From the IMG/VR virus record IMGVR_UViG_3300032080_000129, positions 1 to 57,801 of that record: DNA of 57,801 nt, one strand, 5' to 3'. Position 1 is the stretch's first letter. Each line of letters begins with the position of its first letter. The notes under the pieces are model-generated. The model was not told the DNA's origin. It saw only the letters and a list, made by a program, of their open reading frames with translations, and did no database searches. The translations under genes were made by a program, and so were the position numbers. This stretch comes from a virus (taxonomy: Duplodnaviria; Caudoviricetes). Shown here one piece after another: positions 3,051 through 54,657 of this stretch.

Positions 3051-4042
3051 CAGCCCTCACCGCTCTTGTCGTCTGAGGAGGGCTGGGTAAGGGGATTGCA
3101 GTTGGAGCAGGCGGCCCATTCGGAGCCTTCCCAGATGACGCCCTGCTCGCATTCCTCGCACTCCCGGTCGCGGGCCTCCAAGGTCTCGACGTGCCAGGGG
3201 TCGCTGCTGCCTCCATCGCGGGCGCAGATCCCTTCCGGCTTCGCGGGGTCGGTCGAGGCGCAGGTCGGACAGTGCCCCTCCTCTACCCCGCCTTCCTGTC
3301 CATCGGAGGGCTGCTGGCGGCCGTACTCGTTGACAGGGTGATCCGGGTGGTCCGTGCAGCCAGGGCAGCCGCTCGTGCTGAGGTTGCCGCCGTGGACGCA
3401 GCGGGTCGCCGGCAGTTTGCATTCGTCGCAGAGCCACCGGGTGTCATCGCAGGTCGAGCATCCGGGTTGATGGTTCCCATCCGAATCGGCGCTGACGGGA
3501 GGTGCCGAGGTGGAAATGGAGACCTCGGCATGGAGCTCGGAGCCTCCGTGCCTGTCCCCACAGGTGTCAGCGCCGACTCCGACGGGTCGCTGGGAGAAGT
3601 CGTAGAGTGCGTCCGAAAGCTCAACCGTCAGCAGGTTCCGGGAGAGCAGGAAGTTGTTCAGCCCCTCCCTTACCTGCTCCAGCGTGTACCTCGGCTCCTC
3701 CTCTACCTGCTGGGGAAAATGCGTGGAGCCCTGATTGAGCCGGGCGGTTTCGCCAGGCATTCCCGCTTTCGCGGCCTCCTCGGCAAGCTCCTCGCTCGCG
3801 TCCACCACCACGGCGGTGAGCCTGTCGACGTTGGCTGCTTCCTCTACCTGTGCGGTGAAGTAGCGACGGAGCATCGGGAGGGCGTCCTTGATTCCTTGGC
3901 GCCATCGCGCTTTCTCGTCGGGGCTGGCTTCCTCCCAGATGCCAGGGAAGCGGTCCTCCATCGCGCCCTCCATTGCCTTCTTCGCTGCTCCATCCAGGAT
4001 GTGGAAAGGGACCTCCTCGGTGATCTGCTGGGGGTCGGTCAT
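3050..4042 (-). CDS. Mosaic hypothetical protein with several CxxC modules
   Basis: 330 aa; multiple CxxC pairs separated by repeated QVEE / GGVEEG / TQP linkers. Confidence 0.7.
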   Translation of the reverse strand: MTDPQQITEEVPFHILDGAAKKAMEGAMEDRFPGIWEEASPDEKARWRQGIKDALPMLRRYFTAQVEEAANVDRLTAVVVDASEELAEEAAKAGMPGETARLNQGSTHFPQQVEEEPRYTLEQVREGLNNFLLSRNLLTVELSDALYDFSQRPVGVGADTCGDRHGGSELHAEVSISTSAPPVSADSDGNHQPGCSTCDDTRWLCDECKLPATRCVHGGNLSTSGCPGCTDHPDHPVNEYGRQQPSDGQEGGVEEGHCPTCASTDPAKPEGICARDGGSSDPWHVETLEARDRECEECEQGVIWEGSEWAACSNCNPLTQPSSDDKSGEG

Positions 4043-5179: not shown

Positions 5180-5393
5180 GATCCTCCAATCGGGCGCCGA
5201 CGATGCGAGCGGAGTGACCGGCGATGGCCCAGGCGTTATCTGCTTCGCGAACGCCGATGCCTAGGGCGACCTCGCCCCGGATCTGCTCCTGCAGGATCTC
5301 CCAGAGGTCCAGGTCGTACTCCTCCAGCGAGGCTCGCATCCCCTCGGTACTGATCCCCTCGACCGCGATTTCAAGCACCAGTCGCTCAGCCAC
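5169..5393 (-). CDS. Hypothetical phage protein
   Basis: Coupled ORF with RBS. Confidence 0.6.
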   Translation of the reverse strand: MAERLVLEIAVEGISTEGMRASLEEYDLDLWEILQEQIRGEVALGIGVREADNAWAIAGHSARIVGARLEDRAR

Positions 5394-27509: not shown

Positions 27510-29240
27510 TCAGGACAGGGCAAGGGTTTGGATGTCGGCTTGGAGCCGCTCGAGCAGCGCCTGCAGACCTTCGGGCGGTGCGTCGAGGTCGACGGTTGCC
27601 GTTCGGGTGTTGTGCTCGTAGCTGCGCCGCACGATCCGCCGGTAGCTCGGGTCGGCGGCATCGGGGAATCGCACTTCGTCGCCAGCGCGGACCTGGGAGA
27701 CCGGGCGCATGACGCCCCGGTCGTCCATGACGTAGCCCGAGAGGGTGGCCGATCCGGAGCGGTTCAGGCGATTGGCTTCCCGCAACCAGATTTCGCCGAC
27801 TTCGATCATCCGCGCGGGGGTGCTGATCCTGCGCAGATCGAGACGATCCATTCGGTCGACTCCCGCCCTCACCGCCGGGTGGTCGGGGTCGGTGATTTCA
27901 AGTGCGTCGGTTTCCACCGTGGCGCCCGAGCCGATCGGCCCTACCGAGAGCGTCCGGCCATCGACATCCTGCGCGGTGACGAGGATCCTGTCCCAGGACC
28001 GAGCCGCATCGAAGCCCTGTTCCTGTAGGCCCGAGGGTCCGGCGTAGGCCTGCCAGCGCCGACCATAGGTTCCCGGCCGCTTCAATTTGAATCGCTTCTT
28101 CTCTACGAACCAGTCCAGCAGCTCGTATTTCGTCAGCTCCTGCACCACCTGCGACATGGGGCCGGGGTCTGAGAACCAGGCCTGCTGAACGATGTAGCCG
28201 GTGTCTTCGAGGTCTTCGTCCCGGGCTTCGAGCTCGGTGAATTCCGGAATTGCCCAGCCCAGCATCGGGGCCACAGTGAAGCCGACATCGGGCCAGGTGC
28301 CTTGCAGGGCCAATCCGTGGCGGCCTATCACCTTGAGGTTTTGCAGTCGGAAACGCTCGGCGTAGGGATCGCCTTCGGCCGCACCGAGATAGGCCGAGAT
28401 GAATCGGACGAAGCGCAGCCCTGCCACCGCCGAGGAGACGACTTGCTGCAGCGCGGTCGAGGCGTTGTGATCGGTGCCCGTGACCGTCTCGACTATGCCG
28501 TCTGCCGACAGACTGGCGCGATGGAGAAAGCTCGCATCGGGGGAGGCGGAGCGCCCAAGAAAGTCGTAGAGCACTTCGGCGATGTCGACGCCGCCCGAGT
28601 CATAGACGAACTCGTTCCACTCCACCTTGCCGGCCTTCAGGTGGTTGTAGGAGAAGGTCAGCGAGGGGCGCACTTCCCCGGCGGCAGCGTCAATGCTGGT
28701 CGATATCCCGCTGAGATCCGCGCCGGCCCCGATCAAGGCGGCCTTCAGTGCGGCTGACGGTTCACCGCATTTGCTGAGGTCGCCGTCGATGAACCCCGGC
28801 CCGATCAGAGCGCTGTTGTCTTCGAGTGCCTTGGACCACCCGACCGCCTCAGCGGTGATCGACACGCGGTCGCCGTCGGACTCCGGCGTCTTGTCGAGCC
28901 GGTAGTTGGCGACTTCCTCGACCCCCGGCCCGTAGACCGTGATCGCACTGAAGGGAGCGAGATCGGGGAATGACTCGCGGGGGTTGCGCGCCAGCAGGAC
29001 CGAGCCTTCCTTGTCAAGCCCGGGCATCTCATCGACCAGGCGCATATCGCTCGCGACGTTCTCGGTCAAAGGCTCATCTGCTGCCCAGCGGGAGGGTCGC
29101 CCGTTAGGTGGATCAATGCGCCAGGCGAGATCATCAGGTGGGTACTCGCGGACGATGGCTACCCGAGCAGGGGCGACAACTTCAGCGGGTTCGCCTAACG
29201 TCCCCGAGCCCAGGGTCCCGGTGCCAAGGGTGCCGGGCAT
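27510..29240 (-). CDS. Minor tail / baseplate hub-like protein
   Basis: 576 aa in the tail cluster; VRAGDEV..IV...TVDLD C-terminus typical of hub proteins. Confidence 0.7.
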   Translation of the reverse strand: MPGTLGTGTLGSGTLGEPAEVVAPARVAIVREYPPDDLAWRIDPPNGRPSRWAADEPLTENVASDMRLVDEMPGLDKEGSVLLARNPRESFPDLAPFSAITVYGPGVEEVANYRLDKTPESDGDRVSITAEAVGWSKALEDNSALIGPGFIDGDLSKCGEPSAALKAALIGAGADLSGISTSIDAAAGEVRPSLTFSYNHLKAGKVEWNEFVYDSGGVDIAEVLYDFLGRSASPDASFLHRASLSADGIVETVTGTDHNASTALQQVVSSAVAGLRFVRFISAYLGAAEGDPYAERFRLQNLKVIGRHGLALQGTWPDVGFTVAPMLGWAIPEFTELEARDEDLEDTGYIVQQAWFSDPGPMSQVVQELTKYELLDWFVEKKRFKLKRPGTYGRRWQAYAGPSGLQEQGFDAARSWDRILVTAQDVDGRTLSVGPIGSGATVETDALEITDPDHPAVRAGVDRMDRLDLRRISTPARMIEVGEIWLREANRLNRSGSATLSGYVMDDRGVMRPVSQVRAGDEVRFPDAADPSYRRIVRRSYEHNTRTATVDLDAPPEGLQALLERLQADIQTLALS

Positions 29241-30586
29241 CAGTTGAGAAGCTTCAGGGTGGCACTACAGATTTCGAAGCCCGTTCCATACTGATCGGCT
29301 TCGATTTTGCGAGTGCTTCCGGAGTCCTGAAACACTCCGACCTCGAGGTAATCACCTGCTTTCGATTCCAGATGCATTGCCGAGAATGGGACCGCTCGGC
29401 CGTTGCGCCCGGAAAAGCTGTGCTGGTGCTGGAAGAGCGTGTTGTTGGAGCCCCCGTTCAGCGTCACAAACGCTGAACGCTCTCCCGTGGTGACGTTTTC
29501 GTCGTCGAACATCAGGCTCCCGAGAAGGAGCCAATCTTGTTCGGGAATTGGAAGAAGAATCCGGGTCGGGTTTTCGGCCGACCAGCAGCCCCCGATGTTC
29601 AGGCCGAGGGACCCGCCTGCATCACTCCAAGGGACTTTCACAGCTTCCGAGTTCGGCACCGACAAGGACGCGGTGCGCCGCAGCTTGCACTTGATCCGAG
29701 GTCCCGCTGCCGGAGCGAATGCCAGGGCGGTGATGTTCAGCGTGATCGTGGCATCGGTGGTCAACTGCCACGCCGAGTTTCGGTTGACTTCGCCCTCTGA
29801 GACCGTGATCAGCATTCCGGGCCGCGCCTTTTCAGAGGAATCCATCTCGGAGGCGCGTTCCATCGACCATTTGGACCCTGCGCCTCCAAGCGCCAGAACT
29901 TTGTAGAAGCCGTTATTGGCTCCCGTCGCCTCGTTCTTGACCAGGACGTAGTCGCCTACGGAGGGAGCCACCGAGTCGATCGTGGCGATCGCTCCGTTCG
30001 CATTGGCTTCGAGTTTGTTCCCGGTCCGGGTGTTGGCTGCCAGGGCGGCGACGGTTGCCAGCCGAGCGGCGGGCGAGGTGCTGCCCGAGCTAGGCGTTGC
30101 CCATTTGACGCCGGCCGACTGGGCTGAATCAGCGGTCAGCACCTGCCCGTCGCTGCCCACCGCGACCCGGGCAACCGTGTTGTCGGCGGTGCCGGCGAGC
30201 AGGTCGCCCTTTGCGTCGACCAGAGACTTTGGGATCAGCAGCCCGGTCGCCGTATCGACGTAATTCTTGACTGCTTTCTGGGTCGGGTATTTGGTATTCG
30301 AGTTGGCGGCGAGGGTCCCGTCGGTGTCCTTGTTGGACAGAAGCTCGCGCAGAGTGGTCGCTGCTTCCGCAGCGGAGATTCGGGCTGCAACCGTTGCGCT
30401 CGCACCCTGCGGGTTGGTGCCAAGGGTGCCCTGTACCTGCATCATCGCTGAGTCGACGTCGTTATGGAGCCCGGCGTGGAACCCCTCGCCTTCGGGTTCC
30501 CCGGCTTTGGGTTCTCCGGTGTCGCTGCGGTCCCGACCTTCGAGATCAGTAGGCAGCGTGTCGAGAGCTGCGGGGTAGGAAGACAC
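29240..30586 (-). CDS. Tail fibre / receptor-binding protein
   Basis: YP..LD, KGDLL, G.DGQVL, GD.VLVKN....NG.Y repeats; C-terminal beta-sandwich. Confidence 0.8.
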   Translation of the reverse strand: MSSYPAALDTLPTDLEGRDRSDTGEPKAGEPEGEGFHAGLHNDVDSAMMQVQGTLGTNPQGASATVAARISAAEAATTLRELLSNKDTDGTLAANSNTKYPTQKAVKNYVDTATGLLIPKSLVDAKGDLLAGTADNTVARVAVGSDGQVLTADSAQSAGVKWATPSSGSTSPAARLATVAALAANTRTGNKLEANANGAIATIDSVAPSVGDYVLVKNEATGANNGFYKVLALGGAGSKWSMERASEMDSSEKARPGMLITVSEGEVNRNSAWQLTTDATITLNITALAFAPAAGPRIKCKLRRTASLSVPNSEAVKVPWSDAGGSLGLNIGGCWSAENPTRILLPIPEQDWLLLGSLMFDDENVTTGERSAFVTLNGGSNNTLFQHQHSFSGRNGRAVPFSAMHLESKAGDYLEVGVFQDSGSTRKIEADQYGTGFEICSATLKLLN

Positions 30587-30666
30587 GTTGAAGCGGCCCC
30601 TTTCAAGGCGTTGGAGTTCTCGGCTGCGGCGCGGCGCTCGGCCGCGAGTAAAAAGGCCAGCCCCTA

Positions 30667-30729
30667 CTAGGAGGCTTTGGCGAAACTCGCCAAGCCAGTA
30701 GTAGTGCGGGGTAGCTGAGTCGCCTTCAT
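30667..30729 (-). CDS. 20-aa peptide MKATQLPRTTTGLASFAKAS
   Basis: GAGGT RBS; homologous in DNA and peptide to 32511..32576. Confidence 0.55.
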   Translation of the reverse strand: MKATQLPRTTTGLASFAKAS

Positions 30730-31128
30730 CAGCGATACCTCAGATCTGCACAAGCTCTACCCCAGAACAAAAAAGCCGGTGTTTGCGGGGATGTCGCTCT
30801 GGACCCGCGAAGGCTTTGCCGCCCGAGGCTACAGGGTGTGCCCCAGCCTTTTTTCGTGTGGCACACCGGCAGATCTGCCGGTGGCCCCGAATTGCGCGTT
30901 GTCCCCTAAAGGAGACAAGTTGCATTCTCCACTTGCGATTCTAGAGCGGAAAACTTTGGTGAAAACAATTTTGACCTCGTTTGGTCTGCCCCTCGGACGC
31001 GCCAACGTCGCGGGGGGCTTCTTTGTGGTTGGCAAGGGGAAATCTATGGGTTAGATCGGACGTTAAACCGCTCTAGAAAGCGGAATTAGGTATCCCTTCC
31101 CCGAAATTTCATTAACAACAAGGACCTC

Positions 31129-31149
31129 TTAAGGATCGGCTATCCTTAA
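31129..31149. promoter_or_regulatory. Perfect inverted repeat before the ATPase gene
   Basis: TTAAGGAT-CGGCT-ATCCTTAA, 12 nt before the ATG. Confidence 0.5.
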
Positions 31150-31161
31150 AGGACTCCTGTT

Positions 31162-32415
31162 ATGACCCAACCTTTGGGAAAGAACCCGTTTCGACCCGGT
31201 GTCGGCACCCGCCCCCTCCATTTGGCGGGTCGCGATCAATCGATGCGGAGGTTCCGCTCCATGCTTCGGGCCGCGCCAGAGCAGCCAGCAAACATGCGGC
31301 TGACCGGACTTCGCGGGGTGGGTAAGACCGTCCTTCTGGGCGAGTTCCAGTCGATCGCGGAGAGCAACGACTGGGCGAGCGCCGTCTTGGAGTTCCAGCC
31401 CGGCCACAACCGGGAGGATCAGATGGTGAGCGCCCTCCTGAACATTGCGCAGGATTCGAAGATGCGGCTCTCGCGGATTGAGCGAATCAAGAAAGCCATC
31501 GGGGGCGCTGTTCGCAATGCGGGAACCCTCGGCATGGGGTGGGAAGAATTCCAGGTCACCTACGACCCGATGGTCGAACAGCAGCGAGAGGACATAACCA
31601 AAGCACTCTTTGAAGTGGTGGAGATGGCAGTGCAGAAAGGACGGACCGGGTTCGTCCTTCTGCTCGATGAGGCGCAGGTAATCCGCGACGAGACCAAACG
31701 CGAGGGCGAGCACCCCCTCTCCCTGTTGATCTCGTCAATCGTCGCATTGCAGCGCCGGGAGATTCCTCTCGGTCTTGTCCTGTGCGGACTGCCGACCTTG
31801 ACCGGCAACCTGCTCAAGGCCCGCTCCTACACCGAGCGGATGTTCCGGGGCGAGGAGATCGGTTCCCTTGAGGAGGGAGACGCGAGGGAAGCGTTTGACA
31901 AGCCGCTGGCAGAGGCAGGGGGACACGTCACCGCTGATAAGGACCTCATCAGCCGCGTCGTTGATGAGGTTGAAGGCTACCCCTACTTCATCCAGCTTTG
32001 GGGCGCTGAGCTTTGGGACGCAGCCGAGATCGCGGAGGTCGATCACCTCTCGACCCGTTTGCTGGATGTGGCGCGACCCGAAATCTACAGCCGTCTCGAC
32101 CTTGACTTCTACAACCCGCGCGTTGAAACCCTGACCCCCGCAGAGCAGGACGTTCTACTGGGAACGGCCGATGCGGACTATCCGCCCTTGGTGGTCTCAA
32201 AACTCAACGACGCGATCAACAAGACGCCTACCAACGTCAACGTCCTTCTTGGGCGGCTGGTGGACGCAGGGGTTCTGTATCGACTCCGCAAAGGCGAGTA
32301 CGACTACACCGCTCCTAGGTTCCGCGACTACTTGGTGCGCCGCACTCGTTCTGCTCGCGCCAAAGAAGCGACCCGCAGCGACACGCCTGCGGGCATCGAA
32401 CAGACGCTTTTCTAG
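31162..32415 (+). CDS. AAA/STAND-like P-loop ATPase with C-terminal wHTH (moron)
   Basis: NPFRPG, LAGRD, Walker A GLRGVGKT, Walker B LLLDEAQ, GYPYFIQ, RLVDAGVLY. Confidence 0.9.
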   Translation: MTQPLGKNPFRPGVGTRPLHLAGRDQSMRRFRSMLRAAPEQPANMRLTGLRGVGKTVLLGEFQSIAESNDWASAVLEFQPGHNREDQMVSALLNIAQDSKMRLSRIERIKKAIGGAVRNAGTLGMGWEEFQVTYDPMVEQQREDITKALFEVVEMAVQKGRTGFVLLLDEAQVIRDETKREGEHPLSLLISSIVALQRREIPLGLVLCGLPTLTGNLLKARSYTERMFRGEEIGSLEEGDAREAFDKPLAEAGGHVTADKDLISRVVDEVEGYPYFIQLWGAELWDAAEIAEVDHLSTRLLDVARPEIYSRLDLDFYNPRVETLTPAEQDVLLGTADADYPPLVVSKLNDAINKTPTNVNVLLGRLVDAGVLYRLRKGEYDYTAPRFRDYLVRRTRSARAKEATRSDTPAGIEQTLF

Positions 32416-32510
32416 CCGACGCCCCTCTCGCGGGGGGTGAGAGCCATCCATGGGGTCAGCGGTCCGAATGACCTTCCATGGGGTAGACCCGACCCGAACA
32501 GGAGGTATCC

Positions 32511-32576
32511 ATGATTCAGCTACTCCCGCAACCCCGCTTGGCTAGTCGCGTGGCGCGTTTCGCCAATCCCTCCTAG
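32511..32576 (+). CDS. 21-aa peptide MIQLLPQPRLASRVARFANPS
   Basis: AGGAGGT RBS; homologous to 30667..30729. Confidence 0.55.
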   Translation: MIQLLPQPRLASRVARFANPS

Positions 32577-32690
32577 GCGGCCCGGTAGGCACAACAGGGT
32601 GGTCGGGTCCGGCTCGAGCTGGATAAGATGCCGTCCGTTGAAGCGCGCACAAACCCGCTGCGCGCCTACCCTGAGGGAGGATCCCGAAAG

Positions 32691-32909
32691 ATGAACCGCT
32701 TTGTGGCCATATTTGCCCTAACGCTTGTTGGCGTTGTGCTCGGCCTGGGGGTCGGCCAAGTTACTTCTGCCGACTCAGCTTCGAACTACACCGACCGCCT
32801 GATCTTGCGGGAGCTGAAGGAAATCAACGAGCAGCTAGACGCAATCAAGTACAACACGGGGGCCGTTTGCCAGGACGCCTCCAAGGGCTTTTCGTGCCGA
32901 AAGTTCTAG
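32691..32909 (+). CDS. Small secreted/membrane protein
   Basis: GGGAGG RBS; signal-peptide-like N-terminus, short coiled coil, C-terminal Cys pair. Confidence 0.7.
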   Translation: MNRFVAIFALTLVGVVLGLGVGQVTSADSASNYTDRLILRELKEINEQLDAIKYNTGAVCQDASKGFSCRKF

Positions 32910-33005
32910 CGCGGGTCGCCCCGAAGGCGCTACCCTTGATCGATCAATCAAGCGCCCCGGCGACGCTCCAACGTCCCGGGGCATGGCACCAAGGAGAATG
33001 AGTCC

Positions 33006-33365
33006 ATGATGCACCTCAGAAAGCTATCGGTAGTCGCTGGTGTGGTCGCTCTATCCCTCGTCTGGCCGGGGTTGGCTGCGGCCGACGCTGAGCGCCTGAC
33101 TTTTCCTGTGGCCAAACAGGCGATGACGCGCTACGCCGAGGAAGAAGCTGCAGGTCACCCAAACGACACCTATCGCATCTACAACTGCCGCAGGCGGTCC
33201 GGCACGATCATCTGGTGCGCGATCCGCTGGCGCTATCCGGCCGCCCGTGATGAACCTGGCGCGACCGGTTACTACGTACTGCACACCCGAACCGTTGCGC
33301 AATCGAAAACCGAATGCCTCACGGTCTGGGAAGTCCTATGGGAAGACAAGAGGTGCGTCGGCTAG
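33006..33365 (+). CDS. Secreted protein with four Cys
   Basis: AAGGAG RBS; signal peptide ending AAA-D; stop overlaps the convergent tail gene stop (CTAG). Confidence 0.7.
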   Translation: MMHLRKLSVVAGVVALSLVWPGLAAADAERLTFPVAKQAMTRYAEEEAAGHPNDTYRIYNCRRRSGTIIWCAIRWRYPAARDEPGATGYYVLHTRTVAQSKTECLTVWEVLWEDKRCVG

Positions 33366-35284
33366 CTCGCCTCACGGGCGAAGAGGACGCCATCTCTGCT
33401 GAAGGTCTGCAGGCTAAGCCCAGGAGCGGCTCCATCCGGCAACTCGGTTAGGTCCCCCGCGCTCGGGATGGCGATCGTCCGGGTTTGTCGTTCCTCCAGC
33501 CCACCCGCCGGGGTAAACGGGAGAAAGCCGTCTGGGCCGAGGTGGCCCCAGGCATCCGCCGTTGGATGCTGGCGGACGACGCCATCTGATCGAACTTCCA
33601 GCGATCGTGAGGTGAAGCAAACCTTGTCTTCATCGCCCTGTTCGGTGTAGTAGAGGGTGAGGCCCATCCGGTCAACACGGGCTTCGCGTTCGGTGCCCGT
33701 CGCCTTCTCAAAAGCGAGACCGAACCCGAAGTCTTCGGCGTTCGTCTGCGCTCGGGTTACTTTGAGGGAGGCGAGATCCTCTGCGGTCCACTCGTAGATG
33801 AAGACTGCGTCAGAGACGGGCCACCCGCCAGATGGGTACTGGGCCTTGTTGGGACCGACGGGGACTCCCCCTATGAACAGATGCACCGAATGATCCCCGA
33901 ACTGCAGGCCGCCTTCGGGGGAGGATTTCTCCACGATGCCGACCGCAGAAACAGGGCGAGCCCCGACCGGAAGGGCGAAGCCATGCTGGAGCGCCTTCAG
34001 GTAGTTGGAGATGGTTCCGGCGCCCGAGACTTTGATGCTGGCGTACGAGTTGTCACTGGCTTTGGCGTTGGCAGGGCTCGTCCATGCCACCGTGCCCATC
34101 GAGGCATCACTGGTGACTGAACCTGGAGCATGCGTTTTCTGCGCTTCAGCAACCGGGGGCTGTTCCGGCTCGCGCAACACCAGGTATTGCTCGCTGGATA
34201 GCGGATAGACATCCCTTATTCGAAGTGCCCCTGAGCCCCCTGGAGCCCAAGCAGTCAGTTTCCACTCCCAGCGCTGATCCCCCAGCAAGGCCTCTTCGGC
34301 TCGGGGCACCCCGAGGAAGACGGGGATCCAGGCACCTACTGCCGGGGTCGAGATGATCGGTAGGGACTCATCCCAGCGGGTGGCGCCCAGCGCCCGCGAC
34401 AGGAGCTGCAGTCGAATGCCACCCGGTTCACTGCCTTGGTCGAGGATCCGCATCCACATCGGCCGCGGGCCGCGATGGGTCATGTGTCCCTCGCCGACGA
34501 TCTCGGAACTAAGGATCGTCATCCGCCCCGCCGTCAATGCCGTGTGTTGAACGACTTCGGCTCCTTCGACGGTTTTCACTTCCGCCCCACCCTTCGGCGT
34601 CAGATTCTTCGCCAAGTAGTGAAGCTGGGCCGTGGGGTCCGCGAGATCGTCCGGGGCATAGATGCACTCGCGCGAGAAGATCAGGCCGCGCAGATCTTCG
34701 GAGCCCGTGTTTTCGAACCGCCCGCACCAGAGACCTTTGGCGCTCCCCTGACTAGCCGCCTCCGTCGAGAGGAGGTGGCGCGCTCCGGCCGCCGTGGTGA
34801 AAGTTCCGGCTTCGCGCTCTTCGGTCGAATAGCCGGTCGGCCAGCGGGTCGCCGTAAGCACCACGTCCGGTGCATCCCGACGGTGCGCAAAGAGCCATCC
34901 TTGCAGGCCCGAGATCGAAAGCGTGTGTCGCAGAACCTTGTAGCCGATCGAGCCTGCGAACCCGCCGTCTTCATCGAAGTCCCGGCGTATCCAGCCACCG
35001 TGTTCCTGGATCGTCCCCACCTTCTGCTGGAGCTTGTGAGCTGCCTCGGCGAGGGAGACCTCCCCCTCCTCCTTGACCCGGATCGGGATGCGGATCTGCA
35101 CGCCTTGGCGGTGCCCGTCCGAGGAGGTTTCCCCTTCGGCCTGGCGCACCATCTGCGGGGTGATCTGGGACTCGCCCCAGTCGACGCCCTCGGCGCGGAT
35201 CTGGAGGCCGAGCTGGTCCAGGGCCAGCTCCACTCGCTCGGGAATAAACTCGACCGGGTCGAGCACACAAGTCTCTTCAGCCAA
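33362..35284 (-). CDS. Minor (distal) tail protein
   Basis: 640 aa immediately after the tape measure gene. Confidence 0.75.
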   Translation of the reverse strand: MAEETCVLDPVEFIPERVELALDQLGLQIRAEGVDWGESQITPQMVRQAEGETSSDGHRQGVQIRIPIRVKEEGEVSLAEAAHKLQQKVGTIQEHGGWIRRDFDEDGGFAGSIGYKVLRHTLSISGLQGWLFAHRRDAPDVVLTATRWPTGYSTEEREAGTFTTAAGARHLLSTEAASQGSAKGLWCGRFENTGSEDLRGLIFSRECIYAPDDLADPTAQLHYLAKNLTPKGGAEVKTVEGAEVVQHTALTAGRMTILSSEIVGEGHMTHRGPRPMWMRILDQGSEPGGIRLQLLSRALGATRWDESLPIISTPAVGAWIPVFLGVPRAEEALLGDQRWEWKLTAWAPGGSGALRIRDVYPLSSEQYLVLREPEQPPVAEAQKTHAPGSVTSDASMGTVAWTSPANAKASDNSYASIKVSGAGTISNYLKALQHGFALPVGARPVSAVGIVEKSSPEGGLQFGDHSVHLFIGGVPVGPNKAQYPSGGWPVSDAVFIYEWTAEDLASLKVTRAQTNAEDFGFGLAFEKATGTEREARVDRMGLTLYYTEQGDEDKVCFTSRSLEVRSDGVVRQHPTADAWGHLGPDGFLPFTPAGGLEERQTRTIAIPSAGDLTELPDGAAPGLSLQTFSRDGVLFAREAS

Positions 35285-35290
35285 CTACCT

Positions 35291-38200
35291 TCACCTCCCT
35301 CCAGGGGTCAGTCGTCCGGTGACGACCGCATCGCGGGCCGTCTTCTCTACGTAGGCTTTCGTCCGGCGGTCACCCAGGAAGACCTCCACCGGATCTCGGG
35401 TGTCGCCCTCCTTCTGCACGATGTCGCCGTTGATGACGATTCGCGGTTCCCCGCCGCCGCTCAGCATCTCGGCCGATTCCGAAGGGTTGAAGACCCGCGC
35501 CGGGCCTTGAACGACCTCGGGCTTTCCGGTCTCGCCGGCGATCCCCCACTGCCCCGCCCCGATGTAGCCGCCGGTGGCGAACATCCCCGCGTAGCGACCA
35601 CCGGGGTAGGAGGCCTCGAAGTCGCGAATGGTGGTTCGCTGGGCCTCGGAGACGAGGAATCGCTTGCGGTAGTCGACGTTGAGCTGCGCTTCCAATTCCT
35701 TCAGCTCGGAGATCCCCGAGGTCGCATCGCCCACCTTCAGGGCCAGTTCCCGAATCGAGTTCTGGATCTCGAAGATGCGCCCGCCGAAAGCGCCGGCCTG
35801 CGGTTCAGAGGGCAGCGAGCCCAGGATCCCCTGCGGACCCGAGAGGCCCTGGATCTCTTCCAGCTCCCCCGCCCACGTTTCGTCGCGCATCGTCGTCGCG
35901 TTGGCGATCGCTTCCTCGAGCAGCGGGACCTTGTAGGCGGCTTTCTTGTACTGGGCGTAGGTGTTCGAGGGAACGCCAGCAGCGTCCTTGCCGGGCTTGC
36001 CTTTTTTCCCTTTCCCCGACCCGCTTTTGCCGCCCCCGGCGAAGTATTCGAGGACGCCGCCGAGCTGCTTTTTCCCTTTTCCGGCCGGAGCGACCACGCC
36101 TTTGTCGACGCCAACGTTCAGCGCTTCGATGTCGGCGATCTGCCGCTGGAAGTTCCCGATTTCCCGGGTCGCCGTCTCCTGGGCTCGCACCGTCGTGTTG
36201 CGCCAGGCCAGCAGTTGATTCAGCTGGTCTCCATAGGCCCCACGCTCCAGCCCTACGTAGGCATCGGTGACGTTTTCGGGCTCCAGGCTGACGAGTTGCG
36301 AGGCGTATTCTTCGCCCACGTCGGCGTTTCGCCGCAGGCCCGCCAACTGCGCTACGAGCTCGGGGAAGGCCGCACGTTTGCTGATTTTCCCGGCGACCCT
36401 CGCCTTGACCGCTTCGACGTGCTTCTTCTGCCGTTCGATGGTCTTCTCGCGCTGCTCTCGCCCGCGCTCCTGAGCTCGCTCCATCGCTTTCTCCAGGCTG
36501 CGGAAGTTCGACGGGTCCTGCCCCGTGATCTCGCCGTGGCCTTTCGCGTACTGGGCGAGGCTGGAGAGAACGTTGACCGCCCCCTGCGGTTTGGTCTGCG
36601 CCGCGGCCCGCTGCACGGCGTCCAAGACGTGGGCCCGCTCATCCTCCTCGAAGATCCCTGCGCGCCCCCAGAACTTGATCAGGCGCCAGAGCTTCGACTG
36701 CTTGGCTGGCAAGGACTTGGCTCCGTTGGCTTCGTCTTCGAGGGTTCGCAGGCGCTTTTCGTAGTTGGCCTTGCGCTGCTTGCCTTCGGCGGCTTTTTGC
36801 TGGCCGCCGGTAAGCCCGGCACTTTCCATGTCGGCCCCGGTCATAAGCCGCATCGCTTCCCTTGCGCCGTTCATCCGGTCGCTCATCGCTTTGACGCCCG
36901 AGCGCTCCCATTCGGTGTCGAAGAACTTGGCGGCTGCCGCCGCGCTCGGCTGGGAATTCAGCCCACCCTTGAGCCTTGAAGCCGGTTCGGGTCCGGACCA
37001 CATGAATTCCTGTTGGAAGGGGATGCTCGTCCAGGAAACGCCCTGGGACTCGGCCTGGGCCAGAAGCTGTTCCTCGAAGAAGTCGAATCCATATAGCCCT
37101 CGTCCACCGGTTCCGATCGACGCCGGATTCCACAAGGACTCGCGCCAGGCATTGCCGATGACCCCGGCGGCCCCCTTGTAGTTCAGCCCCCTACCGAGCA
37201 GATCCTTGCCGATGGTCAGGGCGACATTCTCCTGGGCCGGCGTGGCGTTGATGAAGCCCCCATCGGCGAGCTTTTGAATCAGCCCGCCGAGCTTGAAGAA
37301 CGCGATGTGGTTGTGCAGGCCCGAGCCGTAGTCGTGGATGTCGTTCTCGGTCACTCCGGCGATGTGCTGAGACACCCACGCCTGCATCGCCGTGCTCGGG
37401 GGAACGAAGTCGAACGCTCCCGGGTTGGCGGCGGTCCCCCGCATGTGCGAGGAGGTCGGCGAGCCGTTGGCCGCGGCATTCTCGGCCGCCGATCGCCAGT
37501 CTGAGGAAATCGAGGAACCGAACTTCTGCGCCAGGAAGTTGGCAACGGTGTAGGTATGGGAATCGACCCATGCGTTGTCGCCCAGCTGCTTCATTCCTGG
37601 AGGCGGGCCGATGAAGGCAGCGCCGTTGCCACCCCCCGCCGTTGACGTTTTCGGTCGCTGCTTCTCAACGAAGTCCCGAGCGGCGTTCCAGGCCAGGCTC
37701 GCCGCGCCCTGCCCGAGGTCTCGGAGCGGACCAGCAGGTCCCGCCATCTGCGGCTTGCCGTGCAGCCCGCCCTTCTGAAAGCGCGGCACCGCTGCGTTGC
37801 GAGCTTCGAGGTTCCGCTGGCCGTAGGCCCGCACTTCCGGCGGCAGGTAGACCCGCTCGCCGGGCTCAAGCGCCACAGGCGTCAATCCGCCTTTCTGGAA
37901 CGGCAGCGCCTTAACGGCTTCGCGGTTTTCAACGAAACTGCCGACCGGCAAGACGGTGCGGTAGGTGTCTCCCGAACCGGAGCCGGGGACGATAAAGCCG
38001 CCGGTCTGCTTGCTCTGCTCACCAGTGATCGTGTCGATGACGTCGCCGGCCGCTCGACCGATGGCGCTCCCTCCGGCACCGACGGTCTTCACCGTGAAGT
38101 CGACCCCCTTCTTCACCCCGAACGCAGAGAGGATCGAATCGACGTTGACTCCAAGGTCGCTGAGGTATCCGGACACAGCGGTAACTAGATCGGCGAAGAC

Positions 38201-41056
38201 CCCGGCTACGGCCCTTGCTCCCCTGCCTGCTTCCTTGGTGATCTGGTTACTCGTCTTGCCGAACCTCGTAACTAGGGAAGATTCGAGTCGCGCCGCGGAG
38301 CCTTTGACCAGCCTGCCGTCTGCCTCCATGCGGCGAGCCATCCCGATCATCGCGTCCTGGGCGGCTTCGCGAGCGCCTTTGGGCATCTTGTTGAGCGTCT
38401 TGATCTGAGCCGAGATCTGGCGGTTGTTGATCTTGCCGACCTCCGCCCAGCCCACCGAGAAGCCGCGGGCGATGCCGAGGGGGTCGCGCCCTTCGAACAG
38501 GCGCTGTTTCCGGGTCAGCGAGCGGATCATCTTCAGACCGACGTCGGTCTCGATCACGCCCTGGCGCATGCCCGCCCGAATCGCATCGATGCCGGCGCCC
38601 ATGTTCTGCGCCATTGCCTGGCGCCATTTTTCGGGGTTCTCCGCCCAGACTTCGTCGATGCCGGAGACGTTCTGCTGCATCACCGCGTGGATGTCCGTGA
38701 CGCGCGAGACGGCACCGGAGTGCAGGAGATCGAAACCCTTCTTGTAGGTGCCGATCGTTTCGACCCCGCGCTCTATCACCCTGTTAACGAGGTCAAGCTT
38801 CTGGCGGACGGTGTCCAGGGCCTCCGTGCTCGCTCCCTGCCCAGTCAAGTGCTTGAGTTCTTCTTGGAGTTCTGCGCGGAAGCCACGAAGACCCGAGCGC
38901 CCAACCCATTCCGGCGCCGACACCTTCACCCCCGCTAGTTCTCCAGGCGAATGAACAAGTTCCCCCTGGGAACCAAGGTCCATGCCTCGCATCATGTCCT
39001 TGATCTCTGGGAGGCGCCGATGCAGTCCTGCGAGGTAGTCCTCGGCGAGCTGGTCCCCCCAATCGTCGTGCGAACCCGACAGGAAGGTCGACACTCCCGC
39101 GCCAAGCGCCGCGCCGATCGCCGTACCAATACCAGGGGCAATGGCACTGCCCACGGCGGCCCCCACGCCCGCGCCTTCAAGAGCCACCCCGATTCTCTGC
39201 CCCGTATTTCCACTGACGATTTCCTTCGTGATCCCACCTACTAGCAGTCCTCCGAGCCCCCAGGTGGCCAGCCCGGTCATGGCTCGGGTGCCCGCACCTT
39301 TCAGCGCCGAGGCCATCTGAGGTCCAGCGGTGCGGATGTTGGATGCAAAGCTTCTGACGAACGAGCGGCTGCCGGCTTTCCCTCTACTGGCCATCTCTTT
39401 CTCGAGGTCCGGCAAGGCGTAGAGGCCACTCATTGCGGAGGACCCCGCGGCGATCTGGGCGGCTTCAGCTTCGGCCCGGCGAACCGAGGTTGAACCCAGC
39501 CAGTAGCGCGAGCTGGCGGCCGGGGCCGCACGAGAGGCAGCCGCTCCTGCAGCAGCCGCAGCGGTAACGGGAGTGGCCGGCGCGGCAGTAGCCGCAACCG
39601 TCTCGGCCATTCCCCTGGCGACCCCTAGCCCCATCAGGCGACCGATGGCTTTACCCGTCGCCAGCAGAGCGCCCTTTCCCCCTACGGCACGAATCACGAG
39701 CGCGACGGAGAACAATTTGCCCCACACGTTCAGCTCGCCCCAGGCACCCAGAATCCCCTTAACCAGAGCGCCAACGAACTGCGGCCCTGCCTTCACGGCC
39801 GCAGCCGTGCCCTTCTCCACCAGCTCGGGATAGATGTCGGCCGCCGCGTCGATAGTACGCTCGGTAATCAGGTCGAGAGACTTCAGGAACTTCTCTTCGC
39901 CCGAAAGGCTTCGGTCGTCGAAGATCGCTGAGACCTCGCGCGCCAGGTCGGTGGCGGCGTCGGTGGTGCCCTCAAGTGAAGGTCTGATGGTCTGGTAGAC
40001 CCGGATCCCCAGCGTCTCGGCCGCGCCCTGCATCTCTTCCAGCGAGCCCTGGAAGTTGTCCATTTTCTTGCGGGCGACTTCCTGGGCCGTCCCCTGCTTG
40101 GCGTTGGCCTGTTCCAGAGCGCGAATCGCTTTGGGCGACGATGCATAGAGAGCGTTGAGGGTTCGCACACCATCGGTGCCGGCCAAGATCGCGAGCGTCT
40201 TTGCCCTTTCGGATTTCGTCATGTCCTCGGTGGCCACCCGCAGTTCCCGCGAGATCCCTGCGCCGCGTTTCAGTTCACCGTTCTGGTTCTGCCAGTGAAT
40301 CCCTAGTTCCCTAGCAAGGTTGGCCTGTTTCTCGGTTGGTTTTAGGAGCTGGATCAAGGCGGTTTTCATCGAGGTGCCGGCGTCGGAGTTCTTGATCCCC
40401 GATTCCGCCAGCGCCTCCAGCACGGCGACGGTTTCGTTCATCCCGTAGCCAGCCAGCTTCGCCACCGAGCCACCCTGTTTAAGGGCCATCGCGAAGTCGC
40501 TGACATCGGCCGTGGTGCGATTAGCGGCCGTTGCCAGCATGTCGGCAATCGACACGGCTTCCTTGCCGCCGAGCCCAAACAGCTTCATCGAGTTGACCGT
40601 GGTTTCGGCTGCTACGCCGAGTTCAAGCTCGCCTGCCGCGGCCAGCGAGAGCGATGCCTGCACCCCGCCGCCATAGATCTGTTCGACTGACAGGCCGCCC
40701 TTGGCGAGTTCAGTCTGTGCTTCGCTGACCTCTCGAGCGGTGAACGCCGTGGATTCGCCGAGCTTCAGCGCTTGGCGTTCCAGGACCGCCATCTGCTTGC
40801 CACTGGCTCCAGAGACCGCCCCCAGGGAGTCGATCTGGCGTTCGAAGTCCATCCCGACCTTGGTGGCCGCAACGAGTGCCGCGCCCGTACCCACTGCCGC
40901 CGCCTTGACCCCGAGTTCGAGGCCTCGGCCCATACGCTGCCCGGCCTTCGCCGTGCGTTCCAGGCCTGCGTGGGTCGTAGCAAGACCCGCGTTCGTCTTG
41001 TTGATTCCCTTTGCCTGGACGAGGACGCTGAGGACCGCGGTCGGCACGGCGTTCAT
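35291..41056 (-). CDS. Tape measure protein (TP901-type) with peptidase M15-like and phage tail lysozyme-like domains
   Basis: 1921 aa; DFE...VSGA...ALKLG.ST.FTA.EV N-terminus; SDWRS..SSH..AFD..HNHI; GAAGVIGNAWRES.WNP. Confidence 0.95.
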   Translation of the reverse strand: MNAVPTAVLSVLVQAKGINKTNAGLATTHAGLERTAKAGQRMGRGLELGVKAAAVGTGAALVAATKVGMDFERQIDSLGAVSGASGKQMAVLERQALKLGESTAFTAREVSEAQTELAKGGLSVEQIYGGGVQASLSLAAAGELELGVAAETTVNSMKLFGLGGKEAVSIADMLATAANRTTADVSDFAMALKQGGSVAKLAGYGMNETVAVLEALAESGIKNSDAGTSMKTALIQLLKPTEKQANLARELGIHWQNQNGELKRGAGISRELRVATEDMTKSERAKTLAILAGTDGVRTLNALYASSPKAIRALEQANAKQGTAQEVARKKMDNFQGSLEEMQGAAETLGIRVYQTIRPSLEGTTDAATDLAREVSAIFDDRSLSGEEKFLKSLDLITERTIDAAADIYPELVEKGTAAAVKAGPQFVGALVKGILGAWGELNVWGKLFSVALVIRAVGGKGALLATGKAIGRLMGLGVARGMAETVAATAAPATPVTAAAAAGAAASRAAPAASSRYWLGSTSVRRAEAEAAQIAAGSSAMSGLYALPDLEKEMASRGKAGSRSFVRSFASNIRTAGPQMASALKGAGTRAMTGLATWGLGGLLVGGITKEIVSGNTGQRIGVALEGAGVGAAVGSAIAPGIGTAIGAALGAGVSTFLSGSHDDWGDQLAEDYLAGLHRRLPEIKDMMRGMDLGSQGELVHSPGELAGVKVSAPEWVGRSGLRGFRAELQEELKHLTGQGASTEALDTVRQKLDLVNRVIERGVETIGTYKKGFDLLHSGAVSRVTDIHAVMQQNVSGIDEVWAENPEKWRQAMAQNMGAGIDAIRAGMRQGVIETDVGLKMIRSLTRKQRLFEGRDPLGIARGFSVGWAEVGKINNRQISAQIKTLNKMPKGAREAAQDAMIGMARRMEADGRLVKGSAARLESSLVTRFGKTSNQITKEAGRGARAVAGVFADLVTAVSGYLSDLGVNVDSILSAFGVKKGVDFTVKTVGAGGSAIGRAAGDVIDTITGEQSKQTGGFIVPGSGSGDTYRTVLPVGSFVENREAVKALPFQKGGLTPVALEPGERVYLPPEVRAYGQRNLEARNAAVPRFQKGGLHGKPQMAGPAGPLRDLGQGAASLAWNAARDFVEKQRPKTSTAGGGNGAAFIGPPPGMKQLGDNAWVDSHTYTVANFLAQKFGSSISSDWRSAAENAAANGSPTSSHMRGTAANPGAFDFVPPSTAMQAWVSQHIAGVTENDIHDYGSGLHNHIAFFKLGGLIQKLADGGFINATPAQENVALTIGKDLLGRGLNYKGAAGVIGNAWRESLWNPASIGTGGRGLYGFDFFEEQLLAQAESQGVSWTSIPFQQEFMWSGPEPASRLKGGLNSQPSAAAAAKFFDTEWERSGVKAMSDRMNGAREAMRLMTGADMESAGLTGGQQKAAEGKQRKANYEKRLRTLEDEANGAKSLPAKQSKLWRLIKFWGRAGIFEEDERAHVLDAVQRAAAQTKPQGAVNVLSSLAQYAKGHGEITGQDPSNFRSLEKAMERAQERGREQREKTIERQKKHVEAVKARVAGKISKRAAFPELVAQLAGLRRNADVGEEYASQLVSLEPENVTDAYVGLERGAYGDQLNQLLAWRNTTVRAQETATREIGNFQRQIADIEALNVGVDKGVVAPAGKGKKQLGGVLEYFAGGGKSGSGKGKKGKPGKDAAGVPSNTYAQYKKAAYKVPLLEEAIANATTMRDETWAGELEEIQGLSGPQGILGSLPSEPQAGAFGGRIFEIQNSIRELALKVGDATSGISELKELEAQLNVDYRKRFLVSEAQRTTIRDFEASYPGGRYAGMFATGGYIGAGQWGIAGETGKPEVVQGPARVFNPSESAEMLSGGGEPRIVINGDIVQKEGDTRDPVEVFLGDRRTKAYVEKTARDAVVTGRLTPGGR

Positions 41057-47653: not shown

Positions 47654-47889
47654 TCGGATACGACGAGCTCTCCGCACTTGCGGGTGCCTCCTTGGGCATA
47701 GCGGCCACCCCGCCCTTGCGGGGAGCCTGTATCGAAGAGGTGCGGGCAGGCAGCGGGTGCGCGCCGCGCCTGCTGGGTGAGCAGGGGCTCCCATCAGCCT
47801 GCGCTCCCATCAGCCTGCCCTGTGGAGTGGGGCATCTGTCATCGCCCGGGAGATGCTGGTCTTCCCCTCCGGCGCCTCTACAGCGCCAG

Positions 47890-47977
47890 CGGAGCGACAG
47901 GGACTCGAACCCCGAAGGCGACTGACGCCGCCCTACGCGCTTAGCGGGCGCGCTCCTCGTCCTGCCGGACTCGCTCC
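47890..47977 (-). tRNA. tRNA-Ser(GCT), atypical
   Basis: Acceptor GGAGCGA/TCGCTCC, G73, T arm CGGGG-TTCGAGT-CCCTG, 8-bp variable arm, anticodon loop CCGCTAA; no encoded CCA. Confidence 0.75.
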
Positions 47978-54580: not shown

Positions 54581-54657
54581 TGATGGCGGGGGCCAGATTT
54601 GAACTGGCGACCTCAGCGACATGAGCGCTGCGAGCTACCTGGCTGCTCTACCCCGCG
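54581..54657 (-). tRNA. tRNA-Met(CAT), initiator-like with altered anticodon arm
   Basis: CGCGGGG/CCCCGCC acceptor with C1xC72 mismatch, GAGC/GCTC D stem, CAGCG-CTCATGT-CGCTG, GCCAG-TTCAAAT-CTGGC, ends A-TCA. Confidence 0.88.

Follow-up and report, generated by a model that had tools for sequence, protein, structure and literature searches.

The provirus record IMGVR_UViG_3300032080_000129 carries, on either side of an AAA_16 ATPase gene, two related units of ~98 nt that very probably are the terminal inverted repeats bounding a single non-autonomous element of 1.9 kb, which would be a mobile insertion cassette (MIC) with the ATPase as its passenger. The record was analysed at its full length of 57,801 nt (hereafter the window), and the provirus is one of the Solirubrobacterales. 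An initial annotation, made from the letters and their open reading frames (ORFs), had described the same units as a hidden peptide family, two homologous mini-genes pointing outward from an ATPase moron, and had proposed that they might be peptide modulators of the ATPase, leader or attenuator peptides, type I toxin-antitoxin-like RNAs or the ends of an inserted element. The last of these proposals was supported by inverted pairs of termini, by transposase-bearing relatives and by CTAG junctions. The features of the proposed element are, by position in the window:

30667..32576: whole putative non-autonomous element (mobile insertion cassette), 1,910 bp including the CTAG at each end
30667..30764, minus strand: left long terminal inverted repeat (copy 1), with two GGGGTA-type repeats and then the terminal GAGTTTCGCCAAAGCCTC+CTAG
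Left long end, minus strand: mini-ORF reading outward, 20 codons, with GAGG 8 nt before the ATG
30667..30670: CTAG of the left junction, either a target-site duplication or the outermost bases of the repeat
30974..31086, minus strand: probable transposase-upstream (promoter/5' leader) remnant, from which a transposase would read leftward
31045..31161, plus strand: ATPase upstream region, with blastn homology to loci L003, L004 and L005 beginning at 31045-31065
31162-32415, plus strand: AAA_16 ATPase, 417 amino acids (aa), with a C-terminal winged-helix region (Pfam AAA_16, E 1.3e-9)
32479..32576, plus strand: right long terminal inverted repeat (copy 2)
Right long end, plus strand: mini-ORF reading outward, 21 codons, with GAGG 5 nt before the ATG
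32573..32576: CTAG of the right junction, the TAG of which is the stop codon of the mini-ORF

In a gap-free alignment of 100 nt, the two units, 30764-30667 on the minus strand and 32479-32576 on the plus strand, were 72% identical (blastn against the window, E 3e-10), and they formed the longest inverted pair in a repeat search of the window (75 nt, 71%). No third copy was detected in the window with nhmmer or blastn. All the motifs named in the initial annotation were found where it had placed them in both units. The pattern TGGGGTAGA-N14-GAGGTATC matched the window exactly twice (30734-30764, minus strand, and 32479-32509, plus strand), against a shuffle expectation of 0.08 and with none of 100 shuffles reaching two matches; TGGCGNGTTTCGCCAA also matched exactly twice (30677-30692, minus strand, and 32551-32566, plus strand), with an expectation of 0.16 and two matches reached in 2 of 100 shuffles. 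The mini-ORFs translate, as had been written, into MKATQLPRTTTGLASFAKAS and MIQLLPQPRLASRVARFANPS, each followed by a stop, and from their sequences the peptides are polar and not membrane-like.

Searches outside the window revealed a dispersed family that is not linked to the ATPase. Homologues of the ATPase numbered 2,409, mostly from Solirubrobacterales and Gaiellaceae bins and some of them named by their source as ArsR/MarR-type regulators. At 80 ATPase genome loci, homology to the window was limited to the gene and ~100 nt upstream of it (31045-32416); a unit lay within 4 kb of the ATPase at only one of them (L005), the other 79 being without. Conversely, the ATPase was encoded in none of the 123 metagenome and viral loci carrying the terminal motif, the metagenome loci being counted here and below among the matches listed (at least 120 stretches). 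The initial annotation had made linkage to the ATPase part of its own refutation test, and linkage came out against a peptide family. A covariance model built from three copies of the unit placed it at sites unrelated to the ATPase in four of five ATPase-bearing genomes, and among 151 sampled genomes of that order it was found in 6. The ATPase itself was 56-62% identical in L047, L049, L051, L056, L057, L059, L060 and L067, from Saccharimonadales, Myxococcales, Acidobacteria and Binatia bins, a distribution over several phyla that points to horizontal transfer, or else to mis-binning.

The 22-nt pattern GAGTTTCGCYANNCCCTCCTAG, taken from the 3' end of the unit, matched 3 viral and at least 120 metagenome stretches. 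Placed side by side, the copies had in common a core made of the last ~22 nt (GAGTTTCGCYANNCCCTC) and CTAG, and 74 of 135 instances, 72 of them non-identical, had a window-like region of ~75 nt ahead of this core. In that region TGGGGTAGA and GAGGTATC represent one GGGGTA-type direct repeat, present twice at a distance of ~23 nt. Judging from the loci in which it occurs, this core serves as terminal inverted repeat in a family of DDE transposons resembling the insertion sequences (ISs) IS1182 and IS5. A hidden Markov model (HMM) of the terminus gave two or more matches in 36 of the 134 match-bearing loci, and 33 of these 36 were outward-pointing inverted pairs (minus strand, then plus strand), 125 nt to 4.3 kb apart. 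The window is among them, its pair having the same configuration as in 32 other loci; the two nhmmer matches to the terminal motif, 30696-30667 on the minus strand and 32548-32576 on the plus strand (E values 5.5e-7 and 8.8e-6), set the bounds of the element. All 17 elements that were delimited at both boundaries started with CTAGGAGG, and 16 of the 17 finished with CCTCCTAG; the right boundary of L161, as set, reads ...CCCCTCCTA and then TAG. No direct repeat was present outside the CTAG in these 17 elements.

Elements of 2.6-4.3 kb each encoded a transposase of 316-387 aa with a DDE_Tnp_1 domain, usually accompanied by DUF772, together with a passenger that differed from one element to the next: PIN; a DNA methylase-Mrr fusion with a PIN-like gene; MerR-DUF433; SHOCT; DUF6941; a methyltransferase; DUF2335. 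An IS1182/IS5-like transposase was encoded in 45 of the 123 motif-bearing metagenome and viral loci. PF01609 was found in the transposases of L116, L136, L139, L150, L154, L161, L167, L168, L174, L182 and L221 (E 1e-15 to 4e-25) and in L184, which has a transposase fragment only (E 5.7e-6), and PF05598, the DUF772-type N-terminal domain, in 8 of the 12 PF01609-bearing elements. The best NCBIfam model for the transposase was IS1182 (NF033551; E 1e-37 to 2e-41), at 129-142 bits against a cut-off of 270, and the IS5 models scored 25-73 bits against cut-offs of 110-275; as these scores fall below every curated cut-off, the relatives are filed here as IS1182/IS5-like and not as members of either family. 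The compact relative L182 (1,970 bp) explains the resemblance between the two peptides. Its transposase ORF enters the terminal repeat and ends ...LAKLCLSFARPS-TAG (...LSFARPS-TAG), so that the 'SFAxPS-stop' common to both peptides is the terminal repeat translated in the reading frame used by the end of this transposase.

The transposon copies also have a regular layout. Among the 21 loci in which a full long end occurs together with a near-complete transposase, 20 have the long end 5' of the transposase and directed away from it, and the 105-2,890 nt between the two are the cargo slot. All autonomous copies examined have one long and one short end. In L136, L139, L150, L154, L167, L168 and L221 the cargo mix looks enriched in toxin-antitoxin or defence-type genes, which hints that the AAA_16 ATPase with its winged helix-turn-helix (wHTH) is of the same sort. 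Scans of the ATPase and of the two small ORFs downstream of it with defence-system and NCBIfam models returned weak sub-threshold matches only (STAND_TPR, E 0.004; FxSxx_TPR, 19 bits against a cut-off of 300), and the idea that the peptides carry an FxSxx-COOH motif was dropped, most of them ending F-A-(N/K/R)-P-S.

The inside of the window element fits this layout on its right side. There the order is the ATPase upstream region, the ATPase reading rightward, 63 nt and the right long end, which is the canonical cargo-side arrangement; the ATPase reads toward the right long end, as do the passengers of L136, L150, L154, L167 and L168. Over 103 nt, the metagenome copy L146 shares 85% identity with the right long end. 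Further left, 30974-31086 matched L159, L165 and L161 at 72-76% identity over 109-113 nt (blastn), with shorter matches to L171, L131, L168 and L180, and in every one of these loci the matching sequence adjoins the start of the transposase on its upstream side. A scan for sigma-70-type promoters found a single site, TTTTCA-16-TAGAAT at 30965-30938 on the minus strand, which adjoins this transposase-upstream remnant. The transposase itself was not detected in the window by tblastn with two family transposases (E<=1e-5), and the ATPase is the only Pfam-bearing ORF inside the element. The left side consists of 210 nt without a match and a second long end, in place of a transposase and a short end.

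Some smaller features of this left part were also observed. The transposase-upstream remnant has at its edges the inverted pair TCTAGAGCGG / CCGCTCTAGA (30941-30951 and 31071-31082), the two copies of which are ~120 nt apart. The second copy falls within 33 nt that match the metagenome transposon locus L141 at 94% identity, and the same stretch is conserved upstream of chromosomal ATPase genes (L003-L005); the pair could be an operator common to the cargo slot and the ATPase. Within the unmatched 210 nt there is a perfect 20-nt palindrome, CACCGGCAGATCTGCCGGTG, at 30864-30883, adjoined by a T-rich terminator-like hairpin at ~30828-30858.

Taken together, the element would derive from IS1182/IS5-like DDE transposons with passenger genes (transporter ISs, tIS). 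By comparison of loci, an autonomous copy lies between CTAGs and has a ~20-bp short end past the 3' side of its transposase gene, a ~98-bp long end 5' of that gene and pointing away from it, made of two GGGGTA-type repeats and the same ~20-bp terminus, and a slot for cargo genes. The window copy holds the ATPase in the cargo slot, retains the transposase-upstream region and has a long end on both sides, and would have lost the transposase. It would have inserted at a CTAG in a divergent intergenic region, between a tail-fibre-like gene reading leftward and a membrane-protein gene reading rightward, and its removal would be predicted to join the leaders of these two genes through one CTAG. To move, the element would depend on a transposase provided in trans, which would bind the DNA of the GGGGTA repeats and of the terminus, and CTAG would be a 4-bp target duplication.

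The one ATPase genome locus with a nearby unit, L005, carries a sister cassette. A short inverted terminus of 20 nt (3707-3726) lies upstream of its ATPase, and a long end (5267-5363) comes directly after the ATPase stop codon. Of 9 syntenic loci from related genomes, 5 (L236, L239, L240, L241 and L235) have the genes that flank the cassette at a distance of 8-68 nt from each other; L237 and L233 have unrelated inserts of 357 and 847 nt in the gap, and L234 and L238 match on the right-hand side only. The cassette was absent from 8 of the nine sites, and the ATPase was found in none of them. Since the flanks are adjacent in relatives and the ATPase is in none of the nine loci, the 1.77-kb segment of L005, with its inverted termini, reads as an insertion by this comparison. 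The spot is variable in the relatives: the insert of L233 (2535-3381) apparently encodes a hydrolase-like protein, and that of L237 occupies 2464-2820.

Several points weigh against the conclusion that the window units are the ends of one mobile cassette. No empty-site allele of the provirus was found, so the insertion in the window is deduced by analogy with L005 and with the family; and the L005 relatives are 77-89% identical, a divergence that blurs the exact junction. The window element has two long ends instead of the long and short ends of the autonomous copies examined, and its 210 nt at 30765-30973 had no blastn match. The CTAG could belong to the repeat itself instead of being a duplication. 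With transposase scores under all curated cut-offs the family assignment is loose, and since the last 22 nt of the metagenome copies were fixed by the search pattern, their invariance is no evidence of constraint. Finally, a plain DNA repeat leaves unexplained why one class of long ends retains the start codon of the mini-ORF.

This last point bears on whether the mini-ORFs are translated, either as products of 20-21 aa or as regulatory mini-ORFs built into the long end. Such a role would add to that of a transposon end, and we regard it as possible but doubtful: through an outward ribosome-binding site (RBS) and a short ORF stopping on the junction TAG, translation of outward transcripts and expression of the flanking genes could be maintained. 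An in-frame start codon 3-12 nt after the second repeat was present in 32 of the 72 non-identical long ends. It was kept in 30 of the 35 units in which the second repeat is of the GAGG form against 2 of 27 in the GGGG class, where the second copy reads GGGGT and no start codon comes next in 25 units; among the 10 units with other forms, four (TAGG type) appear to keep a GTG-started ORF. Start, open frame and stop of a mini-ORF are retained in 32 of the 72 units, and in the GAGG class much more frequently than chance would give. Within the 3-12 nt interval, 33 start codons were in the frame of the junction TAG and 7 in the other two frames; the start occurs at two alternative spacings, 5 or 8 nt, which are one codon apart, and it is kept in spite of more than 20 different N-termini after it. 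Third codon positions vary most in the C-terminal half (entropy 0.61-0.71 vs 0.23-0.48). In the window each mini-ORF is directed at a flanking gene, with 80 nt left to the tail-fibre-like gene and 51 nt to the membrane-protein gene. Passages of PMC9330008 record outward promoters at the termini of ISs, among them an IS5-family element that has them at both.

The same evidence has another side. No such start is present in 40 of the 72 long ends, among them the genome copies L005, L091 and L095, and the long-end copies share descent, so that the start-codon counts do not represent separate events. In no frame other than frame 0 do the CTAGs of the repeat itself escape being stop codons, the N-terminal half has no third-position excess, and the last 22 nt were set by the search. 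The full unit of L005 has ACA ATT at the place of the window start codons and faces a convergent gene, with nothing downstream to regulate. The stronger form of the proposal, that the long end is, beyond a site for transposase binding, a portable translation module made of an outward RBS and an ORF of 20-21 codons that takes its stop from the junction CTAG, seems to us unlikely on the patterns of these copies. If it were true, translation to the edge of the element would maintain ribosomes along the outward transcripts and could pass them to the next gene, and the element could sit in operons or promoter regions without silencing its neighbours, here the tail-fibre-like and membrane-protein genes.

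A quite improbable alternative is that two independent solo ends or miniature elements lie on either side of a resident ATPase moron, which would then not be cargo. Solo-looking long ends do occur in genomes, miniature pairs of ~125-165 nt exist, and the window element with its two long ends is atypical. However, the ATPase is bracketed likewise in L005, where the whole 1.77 kb is a presence/absence unit, and the transposase-upstream remnant lies inside the window pair, in its canonical position and orientation relative to the cargo and to the right long end. The outward-pointing orientation of the pair is also that of nearly all the multi-match loci.

It is very unlikely that the units are structured RNAs, whether small RNAs, type I toxin-antitoxin RNAs or 5'/3' untranslated region (UTR) elements. 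Local palindromes are present in individual copies, including the TGGCG/CGCCA palindrome pointed out by the initial annotation, stems lie at similar places in several copies by eye, and copy 1 folds mildly better than its shuffles (z -2.2). Copy 2, by contrast, folds no better than its shuffles (z +1.6); the complementarity between GACCCGACC and GGTCGGGTC described for it is real, but its 3' arm (32602-32610) lies outside the unit, in a flank common to no homologue. There was no relevant Rfam match at E<=10. RNAalifold applied to 67 long ends, leaving out five poorly aligning units of the 72 (L153, L156, L169, L173 and L187), gave 4 invariant pairs at -1.1 kcal/mol, and a consensus fold obtained from three copies was lost in this alignment. 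The TGGCG/CGCCA hairpin was 73.1% paired against 71.7% in column shuffles, with 11 double-change cells against 8.2, so there is no covariation beyond shuffles. These results, and the L005 unit with nothing downstream of it, told against the suggested leader or attenuator peptides; type I toxin-antitoxin-like RNAs fared no better, the peptides being polar and not hydrophobic.

That the units encode modulators of the STAND-like ATPase, or its leader or attenuator peptides, is scarcely credible: the ATPase is flanked by two copies in the window and by one full and one partial copy in L005, but linkage fails at the other 79 ATPase loci and at all 123 motif-bearing loci, both mini-ORFs read away from the ATPase, and the L005 copy adjoining the ATPase has no start codon.

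The unit was also considered as the 5' end of an IS481-family IS and this was rejected. In L085 (575-1609, minus strand) the mini-ORF of a unit is fused in frame to an IS481-type transposase (MNQLPERSHAQSGVGSFANPS-NAPFGPKGRL...). This IS is present as six near-identical copies in one Solirubrobacterales genome (L085 and L098-L102), each at a CTAG. The other five copies have their own left end and match residues 19-332 only, so the L085 copy is a 5'-truncated IS at the CTAG of the unit; it has lost its first ~115 nt at this long-end junction. Before the IS inserted, the TAG of the unit lay ~10 nt upstream of the start of an aconitase-like gene. Elsewhere, termini of the family abut one another: in L122 (1305-1343), L147 (843-888) and L188 (4181-4236) they stand tail to tail through a single CTAG (…CCCTCCTAGGAGGG…) or back to back 13 nt apart, and look as if elements insert at each other's junction CTAG.

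MIC231 of Bacillus cereus, derived from an IS4-family element, is an example of a mobile insertion cassette, and IS5 duplicates 4-bp targets of the CTAG type. Passages of PMC3281130 describe mobile insertion cassettes and miniature transposable elements with inverted repeats (MITEs) as IS-mobilised elements without a transposase, and tabulate an IS1182-family element with a 4-bp duplication. As in MICs, the IS-type terminal inverted repeats of the window element flank a passenger that is not a transposase, no transposase lies inside, and mobilisation is presumed to occur in trans; unlike MIC231, its ends are ~98 bp long with internal direct repeats, it is IS1182/IS5-like, and it resides in a Solirubrobacterales provirus. 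The family also includes MITE-like inverted pairs of ~125-165 nt and ~450-660 nt with no or a single short ORF (L118, L119, L138, L148, L198 and others), but the window element, at 1.9 kb and with a gene, is a cassette and not a MITE.

Transporter ISs, in passages of PMC9330008, are IS derivatives with passenger genes. The autonomous relatives (L136, L139, L150, L154, L167, L168, L221 and others) resemble them in having one DDE transposase and one or two passengers within one inverted-repeat pair, whereas the window copy has lost the transposase. The window element thus fits the definition of a mobile insertion cassette, and its relatives that of a transporter IS. With IS1182 and IS5 the relatives have in common DUF772 plus DDE_Tnp_1 and a palindromic CTAG at both junctions; they differ in their subcut-off scores, in their size of 2.6-4.3 kb with cargo and in their asymmetric long and short ends. 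IS1237, of the IS5 family, has outward promoters at both ends according to the parts of PMC9330008 that treat it. The window ends are similar in having outward expression signals in the terminal ~100 bp, both facing a flanking gene, but here the conserved signal is an RBS-like GAGG with a mini-ORF, and the sigma-70-type scan found no promoter in the units. The literature searched, which did not include supplements or ISfinder, yielded no description of this family, of cargo-carrying IS1182-family elements or of the end sequence; a cargo-carrying IS1182/IS5-like family in soil Thermoleophilia is probably undescribed in that literature.

The provirus itself (57.8 kb, G+C 64.5%) has the majority of its genes on the minus strand, and the plus-strand block formed by the ATPase and two small ORFs sits between the tail-fibre-like and the minor tail protein genes. 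The surrounding features are:

29240-30586: tail-fibre-like protein gene, reading leftward
32628-32909, plus strand: small membrane-protein gene, reading rightward
33006-33365, plus strand: second small ORF
33362-35284: ORF of 640 aa taken as the minor tail protein, with no family match
35291-41056: tape-measure protein

Genes for tRNA-Ser(GCT) and tRNA-Met(CAT) were observed at 47889-47977 and 54584-54657, both on the minus strand. Blastn of 29000-34000 against phage records returned only one 92-nt match at chance level, and scans of viral contigs with the ATPase or the minor tail protein found no relative of the provirus. Of two window-specific motifs searched exactly in viral contigs, the first had a single match, at chance level (L002, where no unit is present), and the second had none.

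For the interpretation of this provirus, a false lead is removed, as the 'hidden peptide family' would be transposon-end DNA. The ATPase moron would have reached the prophage as the cargo of a small cassette without a transposase, and not by phage recombination. The kind of element is known, and this family is probably new to description; the outward mini-ORF conserved at its long end is a small, testable oddity. With a passenger slot that holds PIN, methylase-nuclease, MerR-DUF433 and STAND-like genes, the family is a possible shuttle of defence or toxin-antitoxin-type genes between chromosomes and phages.

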